The notes under the pieces: generated by a model
What the model was told of the DNA's origin: nothing
What the model saw: only the letters and a program-made list of their open reading frames with translations
The model's database searches: none
Assembly (NCBI GenBank): GCA_963722185.1
Contig: CAVRKD010000004.1
Coordinates: 12,480-76,479, forward strand
DNA: 64,000 nucleotides
Direction: 5' to 3'
Origin: an uncultured Actinomycetes bacterium
Lineage (GTDB): Bacteria; Actinomycetota; Acidimicrobiia; Acidimicrobiales; JACCXE01
Position numbers and translations under genes: made by a program
Shown here: piece after piece, positions 29,469-64,000 of the stretch
Position numbering within the stretch: position 1 is the stretch's first letter
Layout: each line of letters begins with the position of its first letter

Positions 29469-29472
29469 ATAG

Positions 29473-30339
29473 TTAGGGTACCAAACTACCTACGGGACTC
29501 AGTAACCCGATGAGCTGCTCGGTGCCCCATTCAGACTGGACGACGACGTCGTGCCAGGTCAGCCGCCCGCATTGCCAACGGGTGATCGTCGTGACAAGGG
29601 TCTGCCGGCGAGCGTCGTATATCGGCTGGTCCTTGTGCTGCTGGCCGTCGAGTTCGACGAAGATCCCTAGCTCCGGCCACGCAAGGTCGAGGCGGGCGAC
29701 GAGCCTGCCTGTGGCCGGGTCGTAGACCCGGTGCTGCCGCACCGGCGTCGGCAGGCCCGCGCGTCGAATGAGTTGGATCGCCAGCGTCTCGAGCAGCGAG
29801 TCCGTGTGCGGTACATCGAGCCCACCTCTGTTCCGAATCACACGCCGCATGCGCCGCGCAGCGACCGTGTTGCCCGTTGCCCACGCCGCAAGCTGCTCAC
29901 GCGTGACGTGATGCTTGCGAAGACAGAACTCGAGCGCCTGCTCCGAAACGTCGTCGGCGAGGCGGCCGGCCAACTCAAGCAACGTGTCGGCAGCAGTCGT
30001 GCAGAACACCTGAGCGATGCTGACGGTTGCAGTCGGCATGGCTGTCTTGCGTGACACGCCGTCTCGGCGGCTGTTGCACGAGCGCGGGACCCAGACCTCG
30101 GGTTCGCCAGCAGCAATATTGTCGAAGCGGAACAACTCGCCGGCGAGCAGGCCGTGACACACGCCGCTCGTCACGAGCGCCGTGGCCCTCCCGATGTCGA
30201 GTGCCGACGGTGGCTCCGGTCCACGGCCGACAACGCCATGAACGACTTGCGTCCACCGGCCTCGCTTTACGGCCCAACGAATGTGGTCCTCGGACTTGCC
30301 GCTCGCGAGCACGCGCTCGACTGTGCGAAGTTCCCGCAC
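29473..30339 (-). CDS. Hypothetical protein with a DUF559/Vsr-like endonuclease C-terminal region
   Basis: The C-terminal pattern is LDLAWPELGIFVELDGQQH...W, as in actinobacterial DUF559 proteins. The assignment is from memory. Confidence 0.55.
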   Translation of the reverse strand: MRELRTVERVLASGKSEDHIRWAVKRGRWTQVVHGVVGRGPEPPSALDIGRATALVTSGVCHGLLAGELFRFDNIAAGEPEVWVPRSCNSRRDGVSRKTAMPTATVSIAQVFCTTAADTLLELAGRLADDVSEQALEFCLRKHHVTREQLAAWATGNTVAARRMRRVIRNRGGLDVPHTDSLLETLAIQLIRRAGLPTPVRQHRVYDPATGRLVARLDLAWPELGIFVELDGQQHKDQPIYDARRQTLVTTITRWQCGRLTWHDVVVQSEWGTEQLIGLLSPVGSLVP

Positions 30340-31927: not shown

Positions 31928-32728
31928 CTACGGAAGGCCAGACGACCGTTCGCAGTTGGTGGCGGTGTCGTTGCCCGGGCCTGCCGAGCAGCGGTCGTTG
32001 GTGCCGGCGCCGCCGTTGAGCGTGTCGTCGCCGTCGTTGCCGTAGAGCCGATCGTTGCCGGCGCCGCCGTTGATACCGTCGTTGCCCTTGCCGCCACAGA
32101 TGACGTCGTCGCCGCCGAGGCCGCTGATGGTGTCATTGCCGCCGCCGCCGGAAATGACGTCAGGCCCTGTCGTGCCGGTCAGCGTGTCGTCCCTGAATGT
32201 GCCCTTAATCGTGGGGTTGTCGCACGGACCGGTCCCGGGCGTCGTCGTCGTGGTCGTGCCACCGCCGCCGGTCGTGGTCGTGGTCGGCCGTGTCGTCGTC
32301 GTTGTGGGACCGGCTGTGGTGGTCGTGTTGCCGGCCGCGAAGGAGATGGGGTGCTGCGCGACGTGGGCGGAGCCGGTGTCGCGGGCAACCATGTAGCAGT
32401 TGTTCGCCGGGATACAACTCGTGCTCGAGTTGATGTTGTGCAGGGCCGGGACCTGCGTGGTGAAGCCCCCGGTGTTGTTGACCTCCGCGGCGCCGACGTT
32501 GCGGCACGTCGGTGGGGCGCCCGCTTTGCACTGCTGGATGATGACGGTGTCGTTCGGCGTAAACCCGGTTCCGGACGCGTTCACGACCTGTGCGTTCGTG
32601 AGATTGCTGTCGGGACTGATGTCCAGCTGCGCGTCGGCACCGCTCGCCGCGCCGACGCTGAGCGTCAGGAACGATCCGATGGCGAGAGCGATGACAGTCC
32701 CGATGAGCCGCTGGTGGCGTTTGCGCAT
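31928..32728 (-). CDS. Secreted chimera: neocarzinostatin-family domain, Thr-rich linker and RTX (GGxGxD) calcium-binding repeats
   Basis: The signal peptide is [31 protein letters not shown]. The NCS-like core has four Cys and a terminal ISF. The linker is [29 protein letters not shown]. The repeats are [42 protein letters not shown]. The start is the ATG at 32728. Confidence 0.75.
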
Positions 32729-32785
32729 CTCGCAACACTCGCCCAGCCGTGATCTGCGGTCAAGCGGCTGCCGTACCCTTGAGAC

Positions 32786-33431
32786 GTGACAACCCTCGAA
32801 AACGCCCGAGCGTCGCTGGATTTCTCCGGTCTCGTAGGCCAACTTCGGGACACGTTCGACAGTCGCGTGACGCGTCCGCTGGCGTGGCGGCATCAGCAGC
32901 TCACGCAAATGGAGAAGCTGCTCGTCGAGAACGAAGACGAGCTCATCGCCGCCTTGGCCTCCGACCTGGGCAAGCCGGCGATCGAAGGCTGGGTCACGGA
33001 CCTCAAGTTCACCCGTGGCGAAATCACCCTGCAGCCGGCGGCTGGCACCGGCCATCGCCGCGGGCTGCGCCGTGGTCGGCAAGCCGAGCGAACTCGCGCC
33101 GGGTGATCGCCCGCGCCGCGGCCGAACACCTCACTGCGGTCACGCTCGAGCTCGGCGGCAAGAGCCCGGTCATCGTCGCCACGACGCCGACCTGAAGGTG
33201 GCGGCCAATCAGATCGCGTGGGGCAAGTTCCTCAACGCCGGTCAAACTTGCGTCGCCCCTGACCACCTCCTGGTGCACGAGGACGTCGTCGACGAGTTCA
33301 GCGACCTGTCCCCGACTCCCCTACGCCGCCAAAGGCTGACGAAGCCGACCCGAATGGATCCGCCGTTGCTCTACCCGCCGTTCACGAAGCTGAAGAAGTG
33401 GATCTTGCGCCAGGCCTTGACGCGTCTGTAA
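32786..33431 (+). pseudogene. Aldehyde dehydrogenase (ALDH3-like) remnant with three large internal deletions and frame changes
   Basis: ALDH motifs are spread over three frames within about 650 nt. They are the N-terminal DLGKPAIEG, then [20 protein letters not shown], then [25 protein letters not shown], then [20 protein letters not shown], and a C-terminal [10 protein letters not shown]. An intact gene would be about 1.4 kb. Confidence 0.75.
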
Positions 33432-36022: not shown

Positions 36023-37417
36023 CTAGGTGACGACAACCGTGCCGATCATCTTCGGATGAATGAGGCACGCGTAGGGATAGGTGCCCGGCTTCGAGATCCG
36101 CAGGGTGTATTCCAGGTACGGACCGGCACCGACCAAACCGCTTGACCAGAACCCCTCGCCGTCGTAGGTGCCACCGTCGAGCTTCTGTATGCCTTCGGCG
36201 TCTTCGTCCTCTTCAGGTATCGGAGGCGCTCCACCGGCGGGCTCCGAGACCTTCGGATTCAGTCGCACGCTCTTGGCTCCGAACTGGATAATCGGCAAGT
36301 ACGGCGGCACATCGAAGCTGACACTGTGATCAGAGCCAATGAACTTCCAGGTAATCGGCGCGCCCGCTTTGGCGCGGATCGTGCGCGGCACGAACTCGTT
36401 GATCGAGCCGTGGATCGGCGTGGGTAGCCCGGCAAACGGACCTGAGACGCGCTCGCCCTCGATGGTCACCGTATTCGTGCGTACGGCGTCGCGGTAGGTC
36501 TTTTCGAGCGGTAGCGCGACGTCCTCGGCCTCCTCTCGCGCGGCGCGCCGCACAGCGCCGGCGGACGGTACGTCGGTGCCGGGTTTGCGCACTTGCACTT
36601 CCGAAAGCTGGCCGGGGCCGTGCACCGCGCAATAGAAGAAGTACGTGCCTGGCTTGGTGTCCTCCGCGATCTGCATCTCGAACGTGTTTCCTCGCGGGCC
36701 TTCGTAGGGGAGGATGCCGCTGCTGTAGAAGCTCTGCGTTCCGTCGAACGCGGGCTGCTCTTGCTGCGCCTTGGAACACGGCTTGCTCGCGTCCTCAGGC
36801 GGCGTGCCGGACTTGAGGAAGCAGGGTTGGCTGACGTTTTGCGCCAGGCCGTCGGTCTCCTCGTCGAACGCGAACAGCAAGTCCTCGAACAGGGGGTCGG
36901 TCGCCTCGTTGATCTGTTCGTTGATCTCGGCGAAGGGCTGGCTCGTGGGGTTGTCGATGTCGCCGAGGAAGGCGTATTTCGCCTGAAGGGATCGGTAGGC
37001 CTTCAACACCTGGTCGCGTTTGCTCGCGGGTTTGGCGGCTTTCAGCGCGACCGCGAAGTCTTGAAGTGTCGCGTCGCCGGGTTCCTCTGGGTTCACAAGA
37101 TCTGGGTTACTGGCGACCATGTCGTCATAGGTGAGGAAGAGGTCCAACCAGTCGCTGACGGGCACCAACGTCTTGTTCACCGAGGTGCCGCCGGTAATCG
37201 TGTGCGGCTCGCCCGTCCACGTCTGTTTGAACACCACGGTCTGACCCGGCAGCACCGAAACCGATTTCGGAAAGTTGTTGGCGAGGAACATCGCGAACTC
37301 GTCGCTGCTGTAGTCCACGAGCACTTCGCGCTGATTCGAATCGTTGCCGCCACAAGCCCCGATGAGCACCACTGCCGCCGCCGCTGACACCACTCGCCTG
37401 AACATGCCGCCGAACAT
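36023..37417 (-). CDS. Lipoprotein with two cupredoxin-like copper sites
   Basis: The lipobox is LIGAC. The C-terminal site YACLIHPKM has amicyanin-like C-x2-H-x2-M spacing, with upstream GSDHSV. The internal site is FYCAVHGPGQL, with upstream GEPHTI. Confidence 0.7.
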   Translation of the reverse strand: MFGGMFRRVVSAAAAVVLIGACGGNDSNQREVLVDYSSDEFAMFLANNFPKSVSVLPGQTVVFKQTWTGEPHTITGGTSVNKTLVPVSDWLDLFLTYDDMVASNPDLVNPEEPGDATLQDFAVALKAAKPASKRDQVLKAYRSLQAKYAFLGDIDNPTSQPFAEINEQINEATDPLFEDLLFAFDEETDGLAQNVSQPCFLKSGTPPEDASKPCSKAQQEQPAFDGTQSFYSSGILPYEGPRGNTFEMQIAEDTKPGTYFFYCAVHGPGQLSEVQVRKPGTDVPSAGAVRRAAREEAEDVALPLEKTYRDAVRTNTVTIEGERVSGPFAGLPTPIHGSINEFVPRTIRAKAGAPITWKFIGSDHSVSFDVPPYLPIIQFGAKSVRLNPKVSEPAGGAPPIPEEDEDAEGIQKLDGGTYDGEGFWSSGLVGAGPYLEYTLRISKPGTYPYACLIHPKMIGTVVVT

Positions 37418-41250: not shown

Positions 41251-41598
41251 TCAGTCCTCGAGTGGAATACGCAGCCACGCCAACATCTGCTTGAGCGCGT
41301 CGTAAGCCGCGAGGCGCGCCTCGTCGGTCCCGAAGGTTTCGGCGGCTTCCACCTGCTCCCACATCCGGTTGATCATCGACGGTCCGACTTCAAGCAGCGC
41401 CGCGCTCCCCGCGCTGGCCCAGCGCGCCAGCACATAGTGGACGAGGCCGCCGACGGGCATTCCGAGGTTGGCGCCGAGCTGCTCCAGCGTGGCCAGTGGG
41501 TCGCTGTGCGCGTAGAGCGCCACGTCAGCTTTGAAGTTGGCGTCCTTGTCGTCGTCGGGCCAGGAGCCGTCCCACGGCTCCACCGCGATGTCGGGCAT
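41251..41598 (-). CDS. Hypothetical conserved cytoplasmic protein
   Basis: The ORF is 115 aa and starts 3 nt downstream of the TetR stop. Third-position GC is high. I do not recognise the family. Confidence 0.5.
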   Translation of the reverse strand: MPDIAVEPWDGSWPDDDKDANFKADVALYAHSDPLATLEQLGANLGMPVGGLVHYVLARWASAGSAALLEVGPSMINRMWEQVEAAETFGTDEARLAAYDALKQMLAWLRIPLED

Positions 41599-41601
41599 CG
41601 C

Positions 41602-47183: not shown

Positions 47184-49134
47184 GTGCCCCCGCTTCCCCG
47201 ATGCCGCATCGTAAAAACCCTCTTCTTCGTCGCGCTCATCGCCGGAGGACTGAGCGTTCCGGCCCGCGCCGCGAGCATGCCCAGCCTCCCGATCGCGACG
47301 ACCTCGCTCCCGCCGATCCGCGTGGCGTCGATGAGCGCGCAGGCACTCAGCGTCGCCGGCGTTCCCGTACGCCGACACGTTCAAGTTGCACAGCGCACCG
47401 GGCGCGCAGCGCGTCATCTACCTCGACTTCAACGGCGAGACGGTCGCCGACACGGGGTGGAACCCCAAGTACACCGGCGGCGCCGCGTTTCACGCGATCG
47501 CGTTCGACACCGACGGCAACGCTTCGTCATTCAGCGACGCTGAACTCGGCATCATCCAGGAGACGTGGCAACGCGTCGCCGAGGACTACGCCCCGCTGGC
47601 GGTCGATGTGACGACGGAGGATCCGGGTCTCGCGGCGATTGACCGCGCCGGCGCGGGCGACCTCTACTTCGGCACCCGCGCGCTCATTACCGACACCTCG
47701 ACCATCGCGGACACCTGCGGGTGTTCCGGCACCGCCTTCCGGAATGCCTTCCCGATCGAATCTGGTCACCAGTACTACCAACCGGCATTCATCTTCGGAA
47801 AGACGCTCGGCACCTCCGCGAAGGACATCGCTGACGTCACGTCGCACGAAGTTGGTCACAACCTCGGGCTGCAACACGATGGCAACGCGTCAACCGACTA
47901 TTACGCCGGTCACGGCGCGTGGGCACCCATCATGGGGATGGGCTACTACCACGGCCTCACGCAATTCAGTAAGGGCGAGTTCAGCAGCGCCGCAAACACC
48001 GAGAATGACTTCGCGGTCATGGCGCAGTTGGGCTTGCCGACCCGCAACGACGACCACAGCGACAGCACGGCCGGTGCGACACCGCTCGGCGCGAGCGGGA
48101 CCGGGATCATCACCACCGACGCCGATGTCGACGTCTTCTCGATCAACGCTTCGGGCGGTGCGTTGTCCTTTACCGCCATGCCGGCACCCAAGGGTCCGAA
48201 CCTCGACATCAAGCTCGAACTGCTGGACGGAAGCGGTGGCGTCGTCGCCGCCAACGACCCGATCTCCGCGCAGCCGAACAATTCGAATCCCGACTACGTC
48301 ACGGGGCTCTCGGCCAGCGTGAGCGCATCGGTTGCCGCGGGTACCTACTTCCTGCGAGTGCAGGGTGTCGGTGCCGGCAACGCGGCGACCACGGGCTACA
48401 GCGGCTACGGCAGTGTGGGCGCCTACACGCTGACGGCCTCGAGCGGCGGCGGGAGCACTCCATCGCTGTCGGTCGGCGACGCCACGGTCACCGAAGGCAA
48501 CGCCGGTTTGACCAACGTCACGTTCACAGTCTCCTTGTCCGCGGCCGCGGCCGCACCGGTGAGCGTCAACGTCAGCACGACCAACGGCACCGGTCTCGCG
48601 GGCTCCGACTACATCGCCGCCGGCGGGGTCGTCACGATTCCCGCCGGGCAGACGAGTGCACCGTTCACCGTCAACGCGGTGGGCGACACTGCGCCCGAAC
48701 CGCACGAGAAGTTTTCGCTGGTCATGGCCAACCCGAGCGGCGCGACGATCGCAAGATCGAGTGGCGCGGCGACGCTTGTGAACGACGACGGTGTCGGCAT
48801 CAAGATCTCCGACGTCGCCAAGTTCGAGGGCGCGGCCGGCAACACCACGACCTTCACGTTCACCGTCAGTTTGTCGACGGTTCCGAGCTGGACCATCGGT
48901 GTAACCGTCAAGACGGCGAACGGATCTGCCGCCAGCACAGCCGACTACACGTCGAAGACGCAGATCCTGAGCTTCGTGGCCGGGCAGAAGACCAAAACGT
49001 TCACCGTCACCGTGAAGGGCGACGGCATGAAAGAGGGCAACGAAACCTTCTTCGTCAACCTGTCGAATCCCACGGGCACCGGAGCCAAGATCACCGACGC
49101 GCAAGGCATCGGGACGATCAGCAACGACGACTAA
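47184..49134 (+). CDS. Secreted metzincin zinc metalloprotease with a PPC domain and two Calx-beta domains; a +1 frameshift near 47361 separates the signal peptide from the body
   Basis: The signal peptide (IVKTLFFVALIAGGLSVPARA) is in frame 3, starting at GTG 47184 after GGAG. The body is in frame 1 and carries HEVGHNLGLQHDG. The two Calx-beta modules each end in NDD. Deleting the G at 47361 fuses the two frames. The longest uninterrupted ORF is 47386-49134 and has only a TTG start. Confidence 0.7.
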
Positions 49135-53225: not shown

Positions 53226-53963
53226 GTGGCCGACCCGAGCATCCCCGCGGCGTTCGGCGCCGGCCTGCTGTCATTCGTCTCGCCGTGCGTGTTGCCGCTG
53301 GTGCCCGGCTACCTGTCGCTCATGTCAGGGCTGTCGGGCGAAGAACTCGCGGAGGCACGCGGCGTCGAGCAACGCCGCGTGCTGCGATCCACGCTGCTAT
53401 TCGTCGGCGGATTCACCCTCGTGTTCGTGGCCTTGGGCGCCTCGGCGAGCGCGATCGGTGAGTTGCTCAACGACCACAAGCGCGGGCTGAATCAGGTCAC
53501 CGGCGTCATCGTGATTGTGATGGGCCTATTCCTCGCAGGCGTCGCGTCACCGCAGCTCTTGCAAGCGGAGAAGCGCTTCCACGTATCGCCGCGACGGCTC
53601 GGTCCCTACGCCGCACCGGTCATGGGCATGGCGTTCGCCTTCGGCTGGACGCCGTGTCTCGGCCCGGTGCTCGCTGGCGTGCTCACCCTCGCTTCGAACG
53701 AGTCCAGCGTGGCCAAGGGCGCCGCGCTTTTGGTCGTGTACTCGGCCGGACTCGGTGTGCCGTTCATCGCCAGCGGCCTTGGACTGGCGCGGTTGCAGTC
53801 GACGTTTCGCTGGATCAAACGTCACTACCGCGCCATCAATCTCGTCTCGGGCGCGCTCCTCGCCGCGTTCGGCGTCTTGCTCTTCACGAACCGCCTGACG
53901 TACATCGCGTCCGACCTCGTCGAGTTCTTCGACTCCCACGGCATGGGCTGGCTGCTGCGCTAG
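53226..53963 (+). CDS. ccdA: Cytochrome c biogenesis thiol-reductant transporter CcdA
   Basis: The first motif is LSFVSPCVLPLVPGY and the second Cys motif is GWTPCLGP. The product has six TM segments. Confidence 0.88.
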   Translation: MADPSIPAAFGAGLLSFVSPCVLPLVPGYLSLMSGLSGEELAEARGVEQRRVLRSTLLFVGGFTLVFVALGASASAIGELLNDHKRGLNQVTGVIVIVMGLFLAGVASPQLLQAEKRFHVSPRRLGPYAAPVMGMAFAFGWTPCLGPVLAGVLTLASNESSVAKGAALLVVYSAGLGVPFIASGLGLARLQSTFRWIKRHYRAINLVSGALLAAFGVLLFTNRLTYIASDLVEFFDSHGMGWLLR

Positions 53964-54832
53964 ACGTTGGCGGGGAGGAGTCGGGCGACGTTCTCGAAGA
54001 AGATGAACAGCGTCGCAGCCATTGGGATCGCGGCTACCGGCCACACGATCCATTTGTGGCCGAGCTGCCGGCGGATGCCGTAGGCCAGGGCCCAGACGGC
54101 GCCGAATGCGAGGCCCCACAAGATGGCCGGTGTCCTGGCGGTAGTGCCTCCGCTCAGGCCGGCTTCGGTGCCGAGCGTCGGTTCCTTCGGTTCTTCGTCC
54201 GGCTTTGCTGGTTCGGGCGGTGGCGCCGGCAGCGCAGCACCGATCAGCTTCGCTGTCACGATCATCCGCTGGCTCGCGGAGAACCGCGGGTGGCATGTCG
54301 TCAACGTCAACCGGTTGTCTTTGGTTTCGTTGAGCACGTCGACCTTGGTCGGCCGCACGATCGTCGTTTCGAGCACCTCGTACCGGAACGCGCCCTGCAC
54401 GGTGGTCACGAGGATCGGGTCGTTCGGCTGGAGCTGGTCGAGGTTGTAGAAGGGCGCGCCATAGGTCGTGCGGTGCCCGGCGATGGCCGCGTTGCCGGTT
54501 TGTCCGGGCATGGGCGTGTCGGGGTAATGACCCGGGCCCTTCTTCAAGTCGTCCACGCCGACGCCCTGCACGACGGTCTTTTCCACGCCGAGGCGCGGAA
54601 TCTTGATGATGGCGATCGCGGAGCCGGTCGGCGCCGGCGGGGCGTACTCCGTACGGGTCTCGTCGACCGGCGCCTTGGCCTGCGCCACCTTGAAGTCCTG
54701 GCGGAGATCCTTCTGGCTGCGCGCTTCGGCGAAACCCGTGCCCCAGAGTTCGTACGCGACGAACAGCAGCATCAAGATCCCGGCCGCCATGAAGACGCGG
54801 CCGATCGCCGACACAATCGGTCGCCATCCCAC
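53960..54832 (-). CDS. Class E sortase
   Basis: There is an N-terminal TM. The catalytic motif is TLTTCHP with His in AIAGHRTTYG, and there is a C-terminal TM tail. Confidence 0.88.
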   Translation of the reverse strand: MGWRPIVSAIGRVFMAAGILMLLFVAYELWGTGFAEARSQKDLRQDFKVAQAKAPVDETRTEYAPPAPTGSAIAIIKIPRLGVEKTVVQGVGVDDLKKGPGHYPDTPMPGQTGNAAIAGHRTTYGAPFYNLDQLQPNDPILVTTVQGAFRYEVLETTIVRPTKVDVLNETKDNRLTLTTCHPRFSASQRMIVTAKLIGAALPAPPPEPAKPDEEPKEPTLGTEAGLSGGTTARTPAILWGLAFGAVWALAYGIRRQLGHKWIVWPVAAIPMAATLFIFFENVARLLPANV

Positions 54833-54895
54833 GGGTAGGAACGTAGCCCCTGCTTGGTGGTTGACCGATGCCGCCCCGTACGATGGTTCCGCCTC

Positions 54896-55558
54896 ATGGA
54901 GCCCGTTGTCCGTCTCCGATCCGTCGTCGCGTTACTCGGCGGCTTCCCCGCACTGGCGGGCGCTGACCTCACCGTCGACGCCGGCGAGGCGGTTCTGTTG
55001 CGCGGTCCCAACGGTGCGGGGAAATCCACGGTGCTGCGGGTGTGCGCCGGTCTCGTGCCCGTCACCTCCGGCGAGGCCACCGTGCTCGGCGTCGACATGG
55101 TGCGCGACCGCACGTCGGTGCGGCGGCGCGTCGCCATGCTCGGCCACCACGGTTTTCTCTATGACGACCTGACCGTGCACGAGAACGTGACGTTCGCCGT
55201 TCGTGCCTGCGGCGGCGACGCCGGCGCGATCCCGGGCGCTCTGGGCCGGCTCGGTCTCGACGGACGGCTCGCGACGACCCGGGTCGCCTCGCTCTCGGCC
55301 GGTCAGCGTCGGCGCACGTCGCTGGCAGCACTCGTGGCGCGTGGCGCCGAGTTGTGGTTGCTCGACGAACCGCACGCCGGACTGGATGACGACGGGCGCG
55401 ACCTCGTCGACGGCGTCGTGCGCGAGGCAACGGCGACCGGAGCGACGGTCCTCATGGCCAGCCACGACACCGACCGCGCCACGGCGCTGGCGGCACGCGT
55501 GCTTACCGTCGCCGGCGGCATGATCACGCCGACCAAGGAGCCTCTGCGTGTTCCGTGA
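54896..55558 (+). CDS. ccmA: Heme exporter ATP-binding protein CcmA
   Basis: Motifs are GPNGAGKST, LSAGQRRR and LWLLDEP. It is the first gene of the ccm operon. Confidence 0.85.
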   Translation: MEPVVRLRSVVALLGGFPALAGADLTVDAGEAVLLRGPNGAGKSTVLRVCAGLVPVTSGEATVLGVDMVRDRTSVRRRVAMLGHHGFLYDDLTVHENVTFAVRACGGDAGAIPGALGRLGLDGRLATTRVASLSAGQRRRTSLAALVARGAELWLLDEPHAGLDDDGRDLVDGVVREATATGATVLMASHDTDRATALAARVLTVAGGMITPTKEPLRVP

Positions 55559-56216
55559 CGCCTCGTTGGTGGCGGGCAAGGACTTGCGCATCGAACGGCG
55601 GTCGCGAGTGACGACGCAGCAGATCGCACCGTTCGCAGTGCTCGTGCTGGTGCTGTTCGCGTTCGCCCTCGACCCCGATCGCGGCGTGCTCGGCCGGGCC
55701 TCGGCGGGCCTGTACTGGCTGGCCGTGGTGTTCTGCACGGTGCTGGCCGTACAGCGCTCAGCCGCCGTGGAGGTCGCCGACCACGCGGGCGAGGGCCTGC
55801 GGCTCGCCGGCCTCGAACCCGGCGGCGTGTTTCTCGGCAAAGCGCTCGCCGTGGCCGCCCAGCTGGCGCTGCTCGAGGTGCTGCTCAGTTTCGGGATCGT
55901 GTTCCTGTACGGCAGCGACCTGCAAGAGCCGCTCGTTCTTGTGGCGACGGCCGGGTTGGCCACCATCGGACTCGCCGCGGCGGGCACGGCGTACGCCGCG
56001 ATTGCCGCCAGTCTCCGCGTGGGCAACACGCTGTTGCCCTTGCTGTTGTTGCCGGTCCTCGCTCCCGTCCTGCTGGCCGCCACCAGGGCGTGGGAGGCCG
56101 GATTGGCAGGTGTGCCCGGGGACGCGATTAGCTGGCTGCAGTTGCTGGCCGCGTTCGCGGTGCTGTACGTCGCAGTTGGTGTCGTCGGTTACGGCACCTT
56201 GCAGGAGGAGTCATGA
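55548..56216 (+). CDS. ccmB: Heme exporter protein CcmB
   Basis: The six-TM product has the size and position of CcmB. The GTG start overlaps the end of ccmA. Confidence 0.82.
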   Translation: MFRDASLVAGKDLRIERRSRVTTQQIAPFAVLVLVLFAFALDPDRGVLGRASAGLYWLAVVFCTVLAVQRSAAVEVADHAGEGLRLAGLEPGGVFLGKALAVAAQLALLEVLLSFGIVFLYGSDLQEPLVLVATAGLATIGLAAAGTAYAAIAASLRVGNTLLPLLLLPVLAPVLLAATRAWEAGLAGVPGDAISWLQLLAAFAVLYVAVGVVGYGTLQEES

Positions 56217-56923
56217 AGTCCATCCGCGTGCTCGGCGCGCTCGCCGTCGTCACGCTCACCGGCACCGTCGCCCTCGGGCTGGGCCTTCCGGCGACGTATG
56301 AGCAACGGACGTATTCGCGCATGCTGGCGCTCCACCCACCGCTCGCGTGGACGGCCTACATCGCCTTCGGGGTCGTGGCCGCGGCGTCGATCCTGTACCT
56401 GTGGCCCCGCACCCGCCGGGCGCGCTTCGACGCCATCGCCGCCGCCTCCGCCGAACTCGGCGTGCTCTTCACTGGGCTCACCCTGGCTACGGGCAGCCTC
56501 TGGGGCCGGCCGACGTGGGGGGTGTGGTGGACCTGGGACGCACGGCTTACAACGACGGCGCTGATGCTCGTCATCTACTTGGGCTATCTCGCGCAGCGCT
56601 CGGTGGCGGACACGGCGCCGGCGCGCGCCAAGCGCTCGGCGATCATCGGTGTGATGGCGATCATCGTCGTGCCGATCAACCATATGGCGGTGGAGTGGTG
56701 GCGCACGCTGCACCAAGGGCGCTCGCTGGCGTCGCTCAAGCCGAGCGCGACGCTCGACGGGGACTTCATCGCCGCCATGCTCCTCGGGTTCCTCGCCATG
56801 ACGCTGACCTACGCCTGGCTGCTCGCCATGCGCACGCGGGTGATCGAAGCCGAGGCCGACATGGAAGAGGACGCGTTGGCCAACGCCATCGCCGCCCGCC
56901 GCCGAGAGGCGGTCGCGCAGTGA
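56213..56923 (+). CDS. ccmC: Heme exporter/heme-handling protein CcmC
   Basis: The Trp-rich WWD motif is WGRPTWGVWWTWDARL, with flanking His residues. It overlaps ccmB through ATGA. Confidence 0.9.
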   Translation: MKSIRVLGALAVVTLTGTVALGLGLPATYEQRTYSRMLALHPPLAWTAYIAFGVVAAASILYLWPRTRRARFDAIAAASAELGVLFTGLTLATGSLWGRPTWGVWWTWDARLTTTALMLVIYLGYLAQRSVADTAPARAKRSAIIGVMAIIVVPINHMAVEWWRTLHQGRSLASLKPSATLDGDFIAAMLLGFLAMTLTYAWLLAMRTRVIEAEADMEEDALANAIAARRREAVAQ

Positions 56924-57033
56924 GCGGGTATGTCATCGCGTGTTATGTGGTGACGATCGGGACCCTGGTGTCGTACTCGCTCTGGACGCTGTCTCGCTTT
57001 CGCGCCGTCACCAAGCGCGGACCGCGTCAGTGA
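56920..57033 (+). CDS. ccmD: Small membrane protein CcmD
   Basis: The 37-aa single-TM product (YVIACYVVTIGTLVSYSLW) sits between ccmC and ccmE, with GTGA overlaps at both ends. Confidence 0.6.
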   Translation: MSGYVIACYVVTIGTLVSYSLWTLSRFRAVTKRGPRQ

Positions 57034-57437
57034 AGCCGCGCGTCGCGGCACTCTTTCTCGCCGCAGCCGTCGCCGTCGCCGGGCTCTTGTTGTGGAAAGG
57101 GCTGACGAACGCGACGGTGTACTTCAAGACCGTCGACGAGGCGGTGGCCGAACGCGCCCAACTCGGTGACCGTCGCTTCCGTCTCGAAGGCGTCGTGCAA
57201 GCGGGCTCCGTGCACGAGGTGCAGGGAGGTGGTGTCGACTTCGTGGTCGAAGAGAACGGTGCGGAGATCGCGGTGCACCACGTCGGTGATCCCCCGGAGC
57301 TGTTCCGGCCCGGGATCCCGGTCGTACTCGAAGGGCGTTTCACCGGCCAGCGCTTCGCCAGCGACCGCATCCTGGTGAAGCACACCTCCGAGTACCGCCG
57401 CGACAACCCCGACCGTGTGAAGGATTACGAGAAGTGA
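57030..57437 (+). CDS. ccmE: Heme chaperone CcmE
   Basis: There is an N-terminal anchor and an OB-fold. The heme-binding motif is LVKHTSEY (HxxxY). Confidence 0.88.
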   Translation: MKPRVAALFLAAAVAVAGLLLWKGLTNATVYFKTVDEAVAERAQLGDRRFRLEGVVQAGSVHEVQGGGVDFVVEENGAEIAVHHVGDPPELFRPGIPVVLEGRFTGQRFASDRILVKHTSEYRRDNPDRVKDYEK

Positions 57438-59416
57438 CCGGGATCGTCGGCCACAGCGCAGCGTTGCTCGGCCTGCTGGCGTCGCTGATCGGTGTTGTCA
57501 CCCTCGTCGTGGGCCTGACGAAAAAGCGCACCACGTACGTCCGCGCCGCGTGGAGCTATGTGTGGTTCGTCGTCGGCGCGGCGGTAATCGGGTTCGGCGC
57601 GATGGAGGTCGCGCTGCTGCGCAACGACTTCTCGCTGCGCTACGTGGCCGACAACGGCAGCCGTGCGACGCCCCTGCTGTACAAGTTCGCATCGGCTTGG
57701 TCGGCGCTCGAGGGTTCGATCCTGTTATGGGTCCTGGTGCTGTCGGCGTACCTGGGGGCGCTCGCACTCCGCCACCGCGCCCAGCGCGACAACGCCGTAG
57801 TGGGATGGGCACTGGTCGTCATGTTCGTGGTGACGGCGTTTTTCTTCATGCTCCTGATGGGGCCGGCGGATCCGTTCCGAACGGTTGCCGGGGCGACCCC
57901 GCTCGACGGGCCCGGACCGAATCCACTGCTCCAGAACCATCCCTTGATGGCGTTTCACCCTCCGATCCTGTACGCGGGTTACGTCGGGTTCACAGTGCCG
58001 TTCGCGTTCGCCGTGGCGTCGCTGGTCACGGGCCGCATCGACGAGGCGTGGGTGCTGGCGATGCGGCGCTGGACCCTCGTGGCTTTCGGGCTGCTGACCG
58101 TCGGCATCATCCTCGGCGCGTGGTGGTCGTACGAGGTCCTCGGGTGGGGTGGCTTCTGGGCCTGGGACCCGGTGGAGAACGCGTCGTTCCTGCCGTGGCT
58201 CACGGCGACGGCGTACTTGCACTCCGTGCTCGTGCAGGAACGCCGGGGGATGTTGCGCGTCTGGAACCTCTCGTTGGTCACCGCCACGTTCGCTCTGACG
58301 ATCTTGGGCACCTTCCTCACGCGGTCCGGCGTCCTTGACTCCGTGCATTCCTTCACTGAGTCGGGCATCGGTCCGCTGCTGCTCGGCTTCTTCGCGGTGA
58401 TCGTCGTCACCGTGTGTGGGCTGCTCGCCTGGCGCGGCGACGCCCTGCGCTCACCCGGCACCCTCGACTCGCCGGTCTCGCGCGAGGCGGCGTTCCTCAT
58501 GAACAACCTGTTGTTCGCGGCGTTCGCCTTCGTCGTGCTGCTGGGCACGGTTTTCCCGCTCATCGCCGAGGCGGTCAACAACACGCGCTTGTCGATCGGA
58601 CGGCCCTACTTCGACCGCATGACAACGCCGATCGGGCTGGCGTTGCTGTTCTTGATGGCGGTGGCGCCGGCGCTCCCGTGGCGGAAGGCCAGCAAAGGCG
58701 TCATGCGCGACCGCCTGCTGATTCCGGCGTGGATCGGCGGGCTGACGTTGGTCGTGCTGGTCGCCGCAGGCATGCGCAGCCTCGCGGCGCTGAGCGCGTT
58801 CGCGCTCGGCGCCTTCGCCGGCGCGGCCGCGCTGCGACAACTCGCCTTGGCGGCGCGGGCGGCGCGGCGCGCCGGCGAGCCGTGGTGGCGCGGCGTGTCC
58901 GGTCGCGCCAACGGCGGCATGGTCGTGCACCTAGGAGTCGTGGTCCTCGCGGTCGCGTTCGCGGCGTCGATGTCGTTCGTGCAACGCGACGAGTTCCGCC
59001 TCAAGCCGGGGCAGTCGGCGTCACTGCGTGGTCACGACATCACGTACCTGGGTGCGGACACGGTGAAGCATCCGAACCGCACATCGGTGGTGGCGTCGGT
59101 GCGGGTGGACGGCCAGCGCGTGTATCGGCCGGCAGTCAGCACGTATCCATTCGCCACCCAGTCCATCGGCACACCGTCGGTGCGCGGCGGGCTGTTCGAC
59201 GACGTGTACCTCACGCTGGTGGCGGCGCCGACGACGCCTACGGGCACGGCCGTCATCGGAGTCGTCGTGACGCCGTTGGTCAACTGGTTGTGGGCCGGAG
59301 GCGGGATCATCGCCGTGGGCACGGCGTTGGCGTTGGTGCCCGGCCGGCGCCGGCGCCCCACCGCGCCGGTTTCGGAGCCCACGTTCGTGGCCGAATCCGC
59401 CTCGGTCCCGGTATGA
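57434..59416 (+). CDS. ccmF: Cytochrome c heme lyase subunit CcmF
   Basis: The WWD motif is WGGFWAWDPVENASFLPW. The product is 660 aa with many TM segments. Confidence 0.92.
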   Translation: MTGIVGHSAALLGLLASLIGVVTLVVGLTKKRTTYVRAAWSYVWFVVGAAVIGFGAMEVALLRNDFSLRYVADNGSRATPLLYKFASAWSALEGSILLWVLVLSAYLGALALRHRAQRDNAVVGWALVVMFVVTAFFFMLLMGPADPFRTVAGATPLDGPGPNPLLQNHPLMAFHPPILYAGYVGFTVPFAFAVASLVTGRIDEAWVLAMRRWTLVAFGLLTVGIILGAWWSYEVLGWGGFWAWDPVENASFLPWLTATAYLHSVLVQERRGMLRVWNLSLVTATFALTILGTFLTRSGVLDSVHSFTESGIGPLLLGFFAVIVVTVCGLLAWRGDALRSPGTLDSPVSREAAFLMNNLLFAAFAFVVLLGTVFPLIAEAVNNTRLSIGRPYFDRMTTPIGLALLFLMAVAPALPWRKASKGVMRDRLLIPAWIGGLTLVVLVAAGMRSLAALSAFALGAFAGAAALRQLALAARAARRAGEPWWRGVSGRANGGMVVHLGVVVLAVAFAASMSFVQRDEFRLKPGQSASLRGHDITYLGADTVKHPNRTSVVASVRVDGQRVYRPAVSTYPFATQSIGTPSVRGGLFDDVYLTLVAAPTTPTGTAVIGVVVTPLVNWLWAGGGIIAVGTALALVPGRRRRPTAPVSEPTFVAESASVPV

Positions 59417-59979
59417 CCGTCGCCGCGCCGGGGCGTCATCGTCGCATCGCGCCGTGGATCGCCGGCGCGGTCGGGGTGGTGTTGCTCGCAGTCGTGGTCG
59501 TGGCCGCAACGGCCAAACCCGCGCAGCAGCGCGTCGCCGACAGTCCGCTCCTCGGCCACGCCGCGCCCGCCGCCGCCGGAGAGGTCATCTCCGGCCCTCA
59601 GCAGACGCTCGCAACCTTGCGCGGCAAGTACGTCATCGTCAACTTCTTCGCCACGTGGTGCGTGCCGTGTCGGCGTGAGCACCCGGAACTGATCAAGTTC
59701 GCCGCTCGACACGCGACCGTCGACGACGCGGCGGTCCTCCAGGTCGTCTACGGCGACCGCGCGTCGACCGTGCGTTCCTTCCTCGAGGACCATGGCGGCG
59801 AGTGGACGGTGCTCGACGACCCGACCGGAAAGATCTCGCTGGACTGGGGCGTCGGGGGCCTGCCCGAGAGCTACCTCGTCGACCCGAACGGGTTCGTGCT
59901 TTACAAGATCACGGGCGGCGCTGACGCGCAAGGCCTAGAGGACCTGCTCCGTCAAGCGAAGGCGGGCCCGGCCGGGTGA
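59413..59979 (+). CDS. ccmG: Thiol:disulfide oxidoreductase CcmG/DsbE
   Basis: There is a TM anchor and a thioredoxin fold with FFATWCVPCRRE. It overlaps ccmF through ATGA. Confidence 0.88.
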   Translation: MTVAAPGRHRRIAPWIAGAVGVVLLAVVVVAATAKPAQQRVADSPLLGHAAPAAAGEVISGPQQTLATLRGKYVIVNFFATWCVPCRREHPELIKFAARHATVDDAAVLQVVYGDRASTVRSFLEDHGGEWTVLDDPTGKISLDWGVGGLPESYLVDPNGFVLYKITGGADAQGLEDLLRQAKAGPAG

Positions 59980-60434
59980 CACGGAAGCGTCTGGCTTGGC
60001 TCGCCCTCGTCGCCGTCGTCGCAGTGGCGCTCGTCCTCGCCGCCCTCGGGCCGGGCGACGAGAAGTCGTCCCCGGCCAAACAAGCCGACACCATCGCTCG
60101 GAGCGTTCGCTGTCCGACGTGCCGCGGTCAGTCGGTGGCGGAGTCGGCGGCACCCGCCGCGCAGGCGATCCGCACCGAGATCCGTCGCCGGCTCGACGCC
60201 GGCGAGTCCCGCGCTGAGATCGAGGCGTACTTCGTCGGCCGCTACGGCGGCGACATCCTCCTGACCCCGCCCCGCGGCGGCATCGGCGGCCTCGTGTGGA
60301 TCGTGCCCGTCGTCGCAATCGTGGGTGCGGCCGCCGGCCTCGGCCTCGCGTTGCAGCGCTGGTCGCGCCGCTCGCTGGCCCATCCGACCGAGGCAGACCG
60401 CGCCTTGGTCGCCAACGCGGATCCGCCGTCGTGA
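59976..60434 (+). CDS. ccmH: Cytochrome c maturation protein CcmH
   Basis: The motif is VRCPTCRGQSVAES (LRCxxC type), with a C-terminal TM. Confidence 0.88.
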   Translation: MTRKRLAWLALVAVVAVALVLAALGPGDEKSSPAKQADTIARSVRCPTCRGQSVAESAAPAAQAIRTEIRRRLDAGESRAEIEAYFVGRYGGDILLTPPRGGIGGLVWIVPVVAIVGAAAGLGLALQRWSRRSLAHPTEADRALVANADPPS

Positions 60435-61153
60435 ACGAGGCCGAACGCGCCGAGCTGGTTGCCGAGCGCGACTTCTTGTTGCGTTCGATCGCCGATCTCG
60501 ATGCTGAGCAGGAAGCCGGCGATCTCGCCGACGACGACTTCGCCGGCCTGCGCGACGACTACGTCGCCCGCGCCGCCGCCGTCATGCGCGCGCTGGAGGA
60601 ACGTTCTGAGGAGGTTCGCGCCGCTCCTGGCGCGGAAAACCTCCTCAGAAAGCGGCGGGGGCTCGTGGTCGTCGCCACCTGCCTTTTGGTCGCGCTCTTA
60701 GCCGGTGTCGCGCTCGCCAACTCAGCGGGCTCGCGGTCGCCGGGCGCGCCGCTGTCTGGGTCGCTGCCGACGTCGACGGCGGACCGCCTGGCGCGCGCGT
60801 CGGAACTCACCGGCGCGGGAAAGCTGGTCGAGGCGATCAAGGTGTACGACGAGATCCTCGAGGACGACCCGGAACAGCCGGCGGCCCTGGCCTACCGCGG
60901 CTGGATCGTGCGGCTCGCGGGACTCAAAGACGAAGGTCTCGCCTACGAGGACAGGGCGGTGGCGGCGGACCCGTCCTATCCCGACGCTCATTTCTTCCGC
61001 GGGATGATGCTGTGGCAGGACAAAGGGGACCCCGCGGCGGCGGTGGCGGAGTTTCGTCTCTTTCTTTCCAATCGTCCCCCGCAGGCGATGGTCAAGTTGG
61101 TCGAGGACGCGTTGGCGGAGGCCTCAAAAGAAGCTGGCATTACCGACGAGTAA
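60431..61153 (+). CDS. ccmI: TPR-containing CcmI-like protein
   Basis: The GTG overlaps the ccmH stop. There is one TM (VVVATCLLVALLAGVALA) followed by TPR-like repeats. Confidence 0.62.
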   Translation: MNEAERAELVAERDFLLRSIADLDAEQEAGDLADDDFAGLRDDYVARAAAVMRALEERSEEVRAAPGAENLLRKRRGLVVVATCLLVALLAGVALANSAGSRSPGAPLSGSLPTSTADRLARASELTGAGKLVEAIKVYDEILEDDPEQPAALAYRGWIVRLAGLKDEGLAYEDRAVAADPSYPDAHFFRGMMLWQDKGDPAAAVAEFRLFLSNRPPQAMVKLVEDALAEASKEAGITDE

Positions 61154-61309: not shown

Positions 61310-62425
61310 TTAGGCCCCGAGCGCGCGCAACTTTGCAACGACCGTTGGGAACGCCGCGCTGAACGCGGCGATGTCGGCGTCGGTGGTCGACCAGCCGACC
61401 GACAATCGCAAACTGCGCTGGGCGTCCACGCCCATCGCCTCGAGCACCGGCGACGGCTCGAGCGATTCGGACGAACACGCACTGCCGGAGTGCGCGGCGA
61501 CGCCCGACTGATCGAGGCCCAGGAGCACCGCTTCGGACTCCACCCCCTCGACGCCCACGCACACGATGTGCGGCACCCGACCGATCGGGTCGCCGTACTG
61601 CACGACACCGTCGACCGCGGTAGCGGCGTCGGCGGCGGCGCCCGTTTGGAGGTACGCCGCGTTCGCTTCGCGCTCCTGCGACTCGGCGAGTACGTCGGCC
61701 GCCGCGGCGAAGGCCTCGACGAGCGCGACGGCTTCGAGGCCCGCTCGCCGCGCCCGCTCCTGATCGCCGCCCACGAGGAAGGGATCGAGACGCAGCCCGC
61801 GCCGCACCAGCAGCGCGCCCACCCCCACCGGTGCTCCGAACTTCGGGCCGCTGATCGACATGAGGTCGGCCCCGAGCTCGTCGAACTCGATTGGTACGTG
61901 TCCCGCCGCCGCCGCGGCGTCGACGTGCAGTAGGACGCCGCGCTCCTGACACAACGCGGCGATCTCGGCGACTGGTTGCAAGGTCGCGACTTCGTGGTTG
62001 GCCCACTGGCAATGCACGAGCGCCACGTTCTCTTCCAGCAGCGCGCGCACGGCGTCGACCGAGATGCGACCCTGGCCGTCGACTTCGGGCACGCGCACGC
62101 TTCCGTGACGCGCTGACGCGTCGCGCACCGCGGAGTGTTCTACCGCGGCCGCCACGAATCCACCCGTTGGACGTCGGGCGGCGGCACCAAAGCACGCCGC
62201 GTTGATCGCTTCGGTGGCCCCACTGGTGAACACCACCGACCGCGGTCGCGTCCCGAAGAACGCGGCGACTCGTGCGCGGGCGTCTTCGAGCGCCACGCGT
62301 GCCATGCGGCCTTCGGTGTGGACCCGTCCGGGGTCGCCGGTCACGTCGAGCCACTCGAGCAGCGCGGCTCGCGCCTCGGGGCGCAACGGCGACACGGACG
62401 CGTGGTCCAGGTACGCGCGTGTCAC
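61310..62425 (-). CDS. Cysteine desulfurase (class V aminotransferase, NifS/IscS-like)
   Basis: Motifs are YLDHAS, the PLP-Lys region ISGPKFGAP, and the active-site loop SGSACSS. The GTG at 62425 is preceded by GGGAG. The track ORF extends to 62470. Confidence 0.85.
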   Translation of the reverse strand: MTRAYLDHASVSPLRPEARAALLEWLDVTGDPGRVHTEGRMARVALEDARARVAAFFGTRPRSVVFTSGATEAINAACFGAAARRPTGGFVAAAVEHSAVRDASARHGSVRVPEVDGQGRISVDAVRALLEENVALVHCQWANHEVATLQPVAEIAALCQERGVLLHVDAAAAAGHVPIEFDELGADLMSISGPKFGAPVGVGALLVRRGLRLDPFLVGGDQERARRAGLEAVALVEAFAAAADVLAESQEREANAAYLQTGAAADAATAVDGVVQYGDPIGRVPHIVCVGVEGVESEAVLLGLDQSGVAAHSGSACSSESLEPSPVLEAMGVDAQRSLRLSVGWSTTDADIAAFSAAFPTVVAKLRALGA

Positions 62426-62438
62426 GCGACGGCTCCCG

Positions 62439-63161
62439 TTAGGAGAGCGAGGTGACGCACGATGTGCCACCCATTGCGCGCGAGCTCTCGGTCACAGGGG
62501 CCGTGTCGCCGTAGAGGCCCGCGAGCATGCCTCGCACCATGCCGCGGTCGACCGCGCACATCACCGGGTGATCATGGGCCGCCGCGCCAAAGGGGCACTG
62601 ATCGGAGATGATCGCCAGCGACGTGCCGCGCGCTTCGGCGTGGGCGGCAAAACCGTGGGCGGTGAGCGCGTCGGCCACTGCGGCGAGCGCCGACTTGAAC
62701 GAGCGGTGGACTTCACCGGGCGACATGCGCTCGGCGAGCGAGCGACCGTACTCCTCGCCGACGGACTCGGCGAGCTTCTCGGCCTGGTCTGCGGGCAGCA
62801 TCGCCAACGCTCGCCCGAGCAGGGTCGAGAGCAGATCGTCGCGCCGTCCGTTGAGGTCGAGCGGCTCGACGATGGCCGAGGCCTTGTAATGCTTCGACGG
62901 TCTTCCGGCGCCGGTGTGGCCGCTGCGGTGAACGGTGACCTCGAGGTAACCGCCGGCGGCGAGCTTGTCGAGATGGTGGCGGGCCACGTTCGGATGCAGC
63001 GCGAACTTCTCGGCCACGGCGGTGGCAGTCACGCCATCGGCGGCGTCGCGGGCGAACAGATAGATGTCGCGCCGCGTGGGATCGCCGAAGGCGGACGTGA
63101 CCGCGGAGACGGCCGCGGCGAACTCGTCGTCGGTACGCCGAGTAGAAGCTTCAGCAGGCAC
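62439..63161 (-). CDS. ArsR-type winged-HTH regulator with a C-terminal Cys-containing sensor domain (SufR-like)
   Basis: The N-terminal region is GDPTRRDIYLF...VARHHLDKLAAGGYL. C-terminal Cys residues lie in DQCPFG, VMCAVD and TSCV. It sits upstream of a cysteine desulfurase. Confidence 0.68.
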   Translation of the reverse strand: MPAEASTRRTDDEFAAAVSAVTSAFGDPTRRDIYLFARDAADGVTATAVAEKFALHPNVARHHLDKLAAGGYLEVTVHRSGHTGAGRPSKHYKASAIVEPLDLNGRRDDLLSTLLGRALAMLPADQAEKLAESVGEEYGRSLAERMSPGEVHRSFKSALAAVADALTAHGFAAHAEARGTSLAIISDQCPFGAAAHDHPVMCAVDRGMVRGMLAGLYGDTAPVTESSRAMGGTSCVTSLS

Positions 63162-63173
63162 CCCGATATTCTA

Positions 63174-63187
63174 CCTATCCAGATAGG
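63174..63187. promoter_or_regulatory. Inverted repeat CCTATC-ca-GATAGG between the SufR-like gene and apbC (candidate operator)
   Basis: I read it directly from the sequence. It overlaps the apbC ribosome-binding site AGGAGA (63185-63190). Confidence 0.4.
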
Positions 63188-63197
63188 AGAAATCCCC

Positions 63198-64000
63198 GTG
63201 CCCCTTACGCAAGAGCAGATCACCGAGGCGCTCCGTCCGGTCGAAGACCCCGAACTCCGGCGCAGCATCGTCGACCTCGGCATGGTCAAGAACATCGCCA
63301 TCGACGGCGACAGCGTCGCTGTCACGGTCGCGCTCGACGATCGCCGGCTGCCCGCTGCGGGCTGAGCTCACCAACCGCGTGACGAGCGCCGTTTCGGCCC
63401 TGGGCGCTCGCGACGTCGCAGTCGAGTTCACCGTCATGACCGACGAAGAGCGGGCCAAGGTCTCCGAAATGATGAACGGCGCCGGCCACGGTCATGCCCA
63501 CGCCGGCCACGGACATGACCACGCCCCCGCCAAGCCGCTGCCGTTCCGCGAGGGAAGCCGCACCCGGATCATCGCCGTCAACTCCGGAAAGGGCGGCGTC
63601 GGCAAGAGCTCGGTCACCGTCAACCTCGCGATCGCGCTGAAGCAACTCGGCCACGACGTCGCCATCCTCGACGCCGACGTGTACGGCTTCTCCATCCCGG
63701 CGATGCTCGGCGTCGATCACCCGCCGACCGTGATCGACCAGATGATGGTGCCGCCCGAAGCGCAAGGAATCCGTTGCATCTCGATGGGCTTCTTCATCGA
63801 CGAAGACCAAGCGGTCATCTGGCGCGGCCCGATGCTGCACAAGGCGCTCGAGCAGTTCCTGAGCGACGTGTACTGGGACGAGCCCGACTTCCTCGTCGTC
63901 GACATGCCGCCGGGAACCGGCGACGTGTCGTTGTCGATGGCGCAGTACCTGCCGCGCGCCGAGATCTACGTCGTGACTACGCCGCAGGCCGCGGCGCAGC
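63198..64000 (+). CDS. apbC: Fe-S cluster carrier ATPase ApbC/Mrp (DUF59 plus ParA-type P-loop), with a +1 frameshift near 63336; 3' end beyond the window
   Basis: The DUF59 N-terminus is LRPVEDPELRRSIVDLGMV. After VAL the conserved TIAGCPLRAEL, then SGKGGVGKSS, then the DMPPGTGD motifs continue in the +1 frame. The uncorrected ORF stops at 63365. Confidence 0.85.

Follow-up and report, generated by a model that had tools for sequence, protein, structure and literature searches.

How does a member of the Actinomycetota come to carry what appears to be a complete System I for the maturation of c-type cytochromes, when model members of the phylum use the ResB/ResC proteins of System II? According to reviews, System I belongs to Gram-negative bacteria, archaea and plant mitochondria, Gram-positive lineages being rarely mentioned, and Corynebacterium glutamicum, the model actinobacterium, is listed in a review as a ResB/ResC organism. 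The question is raised by positions 53226–61153 of a 64,000-nucleotide stretch of contig CAVRKD010000004.1 (assembly GCA_963722185.1), the whole of which is referred to here as the window. An open reading frame (ORF) list and direct translation of the window give eleven intact genes in this interval, namely ccdA, a sortase gene and nine genes for cytochrome c maturation (ccm; Table 1). Judged from their sequences, the ccm genes most probably form a functional, canonical System I operon that is native to soil Acidimicrobiales, vertically inherited within the order and embedded among core genes, and we put the probability of this reading at about nine in ten.

The proteins of the window were assigned to families by Pfam and NCBIfam profile searches. 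An earlier, sequence-only reading of this DNA had listed nine Ccm functions in order with their diagnostic motifs, and all five motifs that it quoted are present in the translations, the ninth gene being CcmI-like only. CcmA carries Walker A (GPNGAGKS), signature (LSAGQ) and Walker B (LWLLDEP) motifs and scores above the TIGR01189 cut-off of 131.6 bits. It is the predicted ATPase subunit, and CcmB the predicted membrane subunit, of the CcmAB complex, the ATP-binding cassette (ABC)-type ATPase and permease module of System I. CcmC is a WWD-domain heme-handling protein (motif WGVWWTWD) with two flanking His heme ligands; aligned to E. coli (Escherichia coli) CcmC (7F02_C, E 1.2e-28), both ligands and the WWD motif are in register, lalHpp pairing with ylHvp and wwrtlHqg with wwntlHqg. 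CcmE is a membrane-anchored heme chaperone of the His type, the KHTSEY of its HxxxY motif pairing with KHDENY of E. coli CcmE (8CE8_E, 1SR3). CcmF aligns over its full length to the CcmF of Thermus thermophilus (6ZMQ, E 9.4e-130), which is the closest solved structure, from a different phylum. Its WWD motif reads WAWDPVEN (WGGFWAWDPVEN), and it has kept all four conserved His, two periplasmic and two transmembrane (TM; the heme b ligands), matched to 6ZMQ in FHPP, YLHS, SVHSF and VVHLG, together with the CcmF_C domain. These features mark CcmF as the likely holocytochrome c synthase (heme lyase) subunit. Because the alignments to solved structures pair catalytic and ligand positions, it is the functional residues, and not the domains alone, that have been kept.

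The thiol-handling components are equally recognisable. CcmG is a membrane-anchored, thioredoxin-like reductase of apocytochrome and CcmH with the motif WCVPC, and CcmH, anchored at its N-terminus and with a further TM segment, carries RCPTC, so that the CxxC of CcmG and the (L)RCxxC of CcmH expected in System I are both present. Alignment of CcmH to the structures of its P. aeruginosa (Pseudomonas aeruginosa) and E. coli counterparts (2HL7 and 2KW0) pairs the RCPxC motifs, RCPTC standing against RCPKC of 2HL7, and CcmH is predicted to be the thiol-redox partner of CcmF. Two small or divergent members required the help of relatives, which throughout this work are the 80 best CcmF matches among at least 581 detected in GTDB species representatives. 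CcmD, a single-TM protein beside CcmC as in System I, falls on its own under the curated TIGR03141 cut-off. In 63 of 69 related loci the interval from ccmC to ccmE contains a homologous single-TM small ORF (M.YV.AGY...Y....R.R.L.R), and among 30 sampled orthologues 12 match TIGR03141 (best E 1e-6) and 7 an alternative CcmD family; the assignment is made because of this conservation in relatives, the score of the window protein itself being weak.

In the ninth protein a conserved N-terminal helix in the cytoplasm is followed by a single TM segment and then by a tetratricopeptide repeat (TPR) domain outside the cytoplasm. Its gene overlaps ccmH by 4 nt in most loci, and in 11 of 56 loci the two are fused in frame. 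The fusion was checked in L071 (ORF at L071:10600-11979) and is also found in L041, L053, L054, L055, L062, L067, L068, L072, L075 and L079; these loci belong to one Acidimicrobiales clade, and the arrangement mirrors the fused CcmH of E. coli. Position after ccmH, the TM and TPR architecture and this natural CcmH-TPR fusion in a sister clade together lead us to call the ninth gene CcmI-like. Its product, which has no family-level match to CcmI, would be the apocytochrome chaperone of a CcmFH(I) lyase; seven of 22 orthologues match the NCBIfam CcmI model TIGR03142 weakly (best E 0.003).

The nine ccm genes are translationally coupled. Direct reading of the junctions confirms the claim of seven consecutive 4-nt overlaps, which are ATGA at ccmB/ccmC and ccmF/ccmG and GTGA at ccmC/ccmD, ccmD/ccmE, ccmE/ccmF, ccmG/ccmH and ccmH/ccmI, and with these overlapping starts and stops the tight coupling that had been proposed is borne out. 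The remaining junction, ccmA/ccmB, is an 11-nt overlap if ccmB starts at GTG 55548.

Table 1. Features of the ccm locus, with positions in the window and the principal profile match of each
Feature	Position	Strand	Evidence
ccdA	53226-53963	+	DsbD_TM, PF02683 E 3.9e-17
class E sortase gene	53960-54832	-	NF033747 class_E_sortase 184.9 bits; PF04203 E 1.3e-36
sortase/ccmA divergent intergenic region (63 bp)	54833-54895		alignment with relatives
ccmA	54896-55558	+	TIGR01189 142.3 bits
ccmB	55548-56216	+	PF03379 CcmB E 3.6e-27
ccmC	56213-56923	+	TIGR01191 E 1.8e-42
ccmD (37 aa)	56920-57033	+	TIGR03141 E 0.0017 (weak)
ccmE	57030-57437	+	PF03100 E 2.1e-22
ccmF	57434-59416	+	PF16327 CcmF_C E 4.1e-54, plus PF01578
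ccmG	59413-59979	+	TIGR00385 dsbE E 6.6e-28; Redoxin and AhpC-TSA domains
ccmH	59976-60434	+	PF03918 E 9.9e-27
TPR/ccmI-like gene	60431-61153	+	TPR_16 E 8.9e-11

The operon has the component set and the ccmA-H order of System I in E. coli, Rhodobacter capsulatus and Pseudomonas, and it resembles these systems in the WWD and His residues of CcmC and CcmF, the HxxxY of CcmE, the CxxC of CcmG and the RCxxC of CcmH. The TPR partner after CcmH stands alone here, as it does in Rhodobacter and Pseudomonas; the sister clade has it fused, in the manner of E. coli. In Rhodobacter System I the reductant importer is CcdA rather than DsbD, and the same would hold here. The differences are that the host belongs to a monoderm, high-GC lineage of the Actinomycetota, that ccdA is linked to the operon, that every Ccm protein other than CcmA scores below its NCBIfam equivalog cut-off, and that the TPR protein, unlike canonical CcmI, crosses the membrane once, following a conserved helix on the cytoplasmic side. 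System I*, the archaeal and Desulfovibrio variant, has a CxxxY motif in CcmE and no CcmH (Stevens et al. review). It shares the CcmABCEF core and also works without a classical Gram-negative periplasm (in archaea), but the HTSEY of CcmE and the presence of CcmH identify the system in the window as canonical System I, and System I* was rejected. System II (ResB/ResC, equivalent to CcsBA) arrives at the same end product, likewise employs CcdA and an anchored thioredoxin-like reductase (ResA), and shares the WWD superfamily PF01578; here, heme would travel by way of the CcmE chaperone and not through a CcsBA channel. A six-frame scan of the 64-kb window found the WWD motifs of CcmC and CcmF only, with neither ResB/CcsB nor a third WWD protein.

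Is the operon at home in this genome? The best 80 CcmF relatives are 54–83% identical to the window protein and come nearly all from Acidimicrobiales or from broadly labelled Actinomycetota metagenome-assembled genomes (MAGs), one being labelled Acidobacteriota; they include a cultured isolate, Aquihabitans sp. G128. On this evidence the genome is that of a member of the Acidimicrobiales, in agreement with the actinobacterial host that had been proposed, and the metagenome runs that contain its DNA are all from soil. When all window proteins were searched by tblastn against the 80 loci and the eight readily detectable ccm genes were scored, 52 loci had all eight in the same order and 25 more had in-order subsets, mostly on truncated contigs, so that 77 primary ccmF loci among the 80 genomes share the operon order. 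The flanks are shared too, with an enoyl-CoA hydratase gene upstream and genes for a cysteine desulfurase and a helix-turn-helix (HTH) regulator downstream each found in 39 loci. In the window, the 3' flank (61310–64000) holds a NifS/IscS-like cysteine desulfurase (minus strand), a SufR-like HTH regulator (minus strand) and then an Mrp/NUBPL-type P-loop Fe-S carrier (plus strand) that continues past the end of the window.

The composition and evolution of the genes are those of resident DNA. GC content (0.62–0.74) and GC at third codon positions (GC3; 0.79–0.92) of the ccm genes are the same as those of the flanking genes, the comparison that the sequence-only reading had recommended thus giving native values for both. 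The ratio of nonsynonymous to synonymous substitution rates (dN/dS), measured against three relatives, is 0.07–0.38 for all eleven genes, which indicates purifying selection; that of ccmB is 0.07–0.14. A pseudogene or relic was considered and is ruled out by the intact ORFs and these ratios. Within the 64-kb window the operon has housekeeping genes as neighbours, including those for ClpP, aminoacyl-tRNA synthetases and LeuA, and there are no mobile-element genes around it.

To find deeper relatives of CcmF, representatives at 50% identity were searched exhaustively and clusters were then looked up. The nearest CcmFs outside Acidimicrobiales are 39–51% identical and derive from other Actinomycetota MAGs, Serinicoccus (class Actinomycetes), Chloroflexota (Limnocylindria) and Deinococcus, those of Deinococcus and Chloroflexota being 43–49% identical to the window protein. 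In a neighbour-joining tree, which has few labelled tips and lacks support values and is therefore indicative only, the window and 78 locus sequences fall into one clade, inside which there is only one unlabelled sequence (60% identical). The successive sister groups of this clade are labelled Actinomycetota, then Chloroflexota, then Deinococcus. No alpha- or gammaproteobacteria are among the labelled nearest groups of the tree, and the CcmF of a 'Deltaproteobacteria' MAG (45% identity) lies in the outermost group.

Several observations count against a functional, vertically inherited System I, besides the indicative nature of the CcmF tree. All components except CcmA fall under the curated NCBIfam equivalog cut-offs, among them CcmB (TIGR01190, 54 bits against 156), CcmE (87 against 126), CcmF (438 against 569) and CcmH, whose CcmH/NrfF score is 58 against 159. 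The ninth protein has no match to TIGR03142 at E<=0.1, and a PDB profile search with it returned generic TPR proteins only. At the RNA level, a search found matching sequence in three soil-metagenome DNA runs only, and the 64-kb window holds no CXXCH-containing substrate gene. The low scores mean that the proteins are divergent from models built mostly on proteobacterial members, and such divergence in all but CcmA fits an old, separate branch better than a recent import from proteobacteria.

How old that branch may be is the subject of the alternative that survives best. System I may have reached the ancestor of the Acidimicrobiia by a very ancient transfer, or have been inherited from early terrabacterial ancestors and replaced by System II in the class Actinomycetes; vertical descent of the operon would then go back no further than the origin of the class. 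The grouping of CcmF, beyond its Actinomycetota sisters, with Chloroflexota (Limnocylindria) and Deinococcus speaks for such an origin, as does the divergence of the components from proteobacterial models. However, ancient transfer and ancestral presence are not separable on the present CcmF tree with its few labelled tips and no support values, and we hold this deeper history to be possible but tentative.

The genes upstream of ccmA raise a second alternative. CcdA, a transporter of thiol reductant with six TM segments, has two Cys motifs, SPCVLPL and TPCLGP. PF02683 covers residues 7–198 of its 245, and it is a polytopic DsbD_TM protein with two conserved membrane Cys and without the periplasmic domains of DsbD, as is typical of the CcdA family; its gene has a dN/dS of 0.17–0.26. 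The sortase has the active-site motif TLTTC and a C-terminal TM segment, is of the housekeeping-type class E (NF033747 cut-off 160 bits, which it exceeds), and is encoded convergently with ccdA and divergently from ccmA. The stop codons of ccdA and the sortase gene both lie inside a palindromic CTAG (53960–53963), so there is no space for a terminator between them; tight convergence of the CTAG type also occurs in L001, L002 and L052. Terminator-like matches all lie within coding sequence and are uninformative in DNA so rich in GC.

Upstream arrangement could be judged in the 59 loci with enough sequence 5' of ccmA. The gene directly upstream is ccdA alone, on the same strand, in 29 of these and a divergent sortase gene alone in 18; both are present, as in the window, in six, and neither in the other six, so that in total ccdA adjoins ccmA directly in 35 of 59 loci and the sortase gene lies upstream in 24. 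These configurations track the clades of CcmF, and the sortase 'wedge' is therefore a clade-level rearrangement. The position of a sortase gene between ccdA and ccmA, to which the sequence-only reading had drawn attention, is thus real but not special to this genome. The accompanying suggestion that CcdA feeds reductant to CcmG is reasonable and gains from the frequent adjacency of ccdA and ccmA in relatives, because of which we regard CcdA as the probable electron donor to CcmG.

Transcription of the ccm genes probably starts in the 63-bp region that they have in common with the divergent sortase gene. Comparison of the window with L001, L002 and L052 reveals a conserved TACGAT hexamer (TAnnnT, -10-like) 11 nt upstream of the ccmA ATG. 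The ATG at 54896 is itself conserved in close relatives, and since both it and the hexamer are kept it is taken as the start of ccmA. The hexamer suggests a promoter that would give a short or leaderless ccmA transcript; a scan for sigma-70 consensus sequences found no promoter.

Could the sortase be functionally coupled to the Ccm system, either because c-type cytochromes are anchored to the wall under common regulation or because electrons from CcdA keep the catalytic Cys of the sortase reduced? In the 24 loci already counted the gene directly adjoins ccmA on its upstream side and points away from it, sortase identity is 40–75% across clades, and the intergenic region is short and shared. 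On the other hand, flanking genes that are clearly unrelated are conserved equally well, which makes the adjacency of sortase gene and ccmA a matter of general synteny, and ccdA adjoins ccmA with no sortase gene in 29 of the 59 loci. Moreover, a search of the window and of 1.17 Mb of sequence from related loci found no ORF in which CXXCH is combined with an LPxTG/LAxTG sorting signal, and there is no credible CXXCH or LPxTG/LAxTG gene in the window or the 80 loci, where the matches are antisense ORFs in ccmC. Given equally conserved flanks and no such gene, there is no evidence of coupling, which we judge improbable. An equally doubtful extension of the idea is that System I is the ancestral and sole route of cytochrome c maturation in this monoderm class of Actinomycetota, with sortase coupling where the gene is divergent from ccmA; if true, the Ccm pathway would have been elaborated in a way specific to Gram-positives.

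The sequence-only reading had left two options for the origin of the operon, horizontal acquisition or an under-described, lineage-specific arrangement. A recent transfer from a Gram-negative donor, for instance a proteobacterium, would agree with the reviewed distribution of System I and with the use of ResB/ResC by model Actinomycetota such as C. glutamicum, and System I can be mobile in the phylum. A case in point is Serinicoccus sp. CUA-874 (GCA_001942225.1), in which a 13-kb contig carries ccmA-B-C-E-F-H-TPR-ccmG-ccdA (L081:644-12099), with three genes of the phage-integrase family and an rve fragment directly behind it. The cluster looks like a mobile island, and System I may enter the class Actinomycetes horizontally. 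In the window, however, GC and GC3 are indistinguishable from the flanks and no mobile-element genes surround the operon, while across Acidimicrobiales order and flanks have been kept at 54–83% CcmF identity, and the CcmF sequences of the order form a single clade whose labelled sisters are Actinomycetota, then Chloroflexota and Deinococcus. Conserved order, shared flanks, monophyly and native composition leave recent acquisition unsupported and very unlikely. The second option, a lineage-specific and under-described arrangement, is upheld by gene order, flanks, the CcmF clade, GC and dN/dS.

A last alternative, that the locus is no general maturation system but encodes an NrfEFG-type lyase dedicated to one special cytochrome, takes its appeal from a match of CcmF to the NrfE model TIGR03145 (417 bits) and from NrfF being the best NCBIfam match of CcmH, but both scores are far under the NrfE and NrfF cut-offs (927 and 159), the full ccmABCDE heme-delivery module and ccmG are present where dedicated lyase clusters go without them, and the separate ccmF paralogues in L064, L070, L077 and L080 suit a dedicated role better, so that it can hardly be credited. 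In these four loci, a second, long-branch ccmF paralogue stands beside ccdA, ccmG and ccmH without ccmABCDE. The paralogue of these Acidimicrobiales may serve as an NrfEFG-like lyase with a dedicated role; none of the four loci shows a cytochrome gene beside it.

A canonical System I native to the Acidimicrobiales thus remains the preferred reading. Beyond the gene identities, motifs, conservation and selection observed at the locus, we infer the path of heme and electrons, and likewise the expression and substrates of the system, the individual steps resting on homology to the systems of E. coli, Rhodobacter and Thermus. Heme would first be loaded by CcmC-CcmD onto the conserved His of membrane-anchored CcmE, and holo-CcmE would then be released through ATP hydrolysis by CcmAB. 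In parallel, CcdA would pass reducing equivalents through the membrane, to be received by CcmG, an anchored thioredoxin, and CcmG together with CcmH, by its RCPTC motif, would keep the CXXCH cysteines of Sec-exported apocytochromes reduced. Finally, CcmF-CcmH and the TPR protein would take the heme from CcmE and form the two thioether bonds. As all extracytoplasmic components are membrane-anchored, a wall-bearing monoderm could carry out the pathway on the outer surface of its membrane.

Elsewhere in the window, several genes bear on redox chemistry or are of interest in their own right. A single ORF of 1258 aa (25270–29046, minus strand) consists of two fused ABC exporter halves, each a TM domain followed by a nucleotide-binding domain, and adjoins a MarR gene (29043–29489, minus strand). 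Its halves exceed the curated cut-offs of CydD, CydC and MsbA-related models; if it is a CydDC-like thiol exporter, it would be relevant to extracytoplasmic redox balance. A 464-aa protein (36023–37417, minus strand) has weak cupredoxin (plastocyanin/amicyanin-like) matches, one of them C-terminal, and may carry electrons as a blue-copper protein in the respiratory setting to which c-type cytochromes also belong. A 1352-aa ORF (7408–11466, plus strand) with two permease domains of the branched-chain-amino-acid/urea type and two ATPase domains resembles a LivH-LivM-LivG-LivF system in one polypeptide. Probable secreted proteins include one with RTX calcium-binding repeats and a neocarzinostatin-like domain (31928–33082, minus strand) and a metzincin-type protease with PPC and Calx-beta domains (47386–49134, plus strand). 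There are also a PIN-domain (VapC-like) protein (19708–20154, minus strand) and a DUF6027 protein adjoining a TetR regulator (41251–41601, minus strand). Three ORFs have coding-like GC3, two of them (5602–7554, 650 aa, and 11463–12569, 368 aa, both minus strand) with no Pfam or NCBIfam match and one (2598–3458, plus strand, 286 aa) with no match in Pfam.

Nothing in the window is mechanistically new, and its ccm genes are routinely recognised by annotation pipelines: the best 120 protein matches already bear the name CcmF from NCBI/JGI, with Acidimicrobiales or Actinomycetota labels. No record turned up in a look-up of the exact CcmF sequence of the window. The sequence-only reading had allowed that its claim of novelty would fall if System I were already the norm for the lineage, and since genome data have it as the norm for Acidimicrobiales, with CcmF labels already in the pipelines, that claim is weakened. 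A literature search found no paper linking Acidimicrobiia and ccmF, and the few papers that name Acidimicrobi* together with cytochrome c biogenesis or maturation were unrelated. As far as searched, then, a lineage-wide System I in Acidimicrobiales is visible in databases and undiscussed in the literature. The textbook statement that Gram-positives and Actinobacteria use System II fails for Acidimicrobiales, which as a rule have a complete, conserved System I, and related ccm clusters occur sporadically in the class Actinomycetes, for example in Serinicoccus. The order would provide a naturally occurring example of all nine Ccm proteins at work where there is no outer membrane, and it bears on how the distribution of Systems I and II among early terrabacterial lineages is to be reconstructed.

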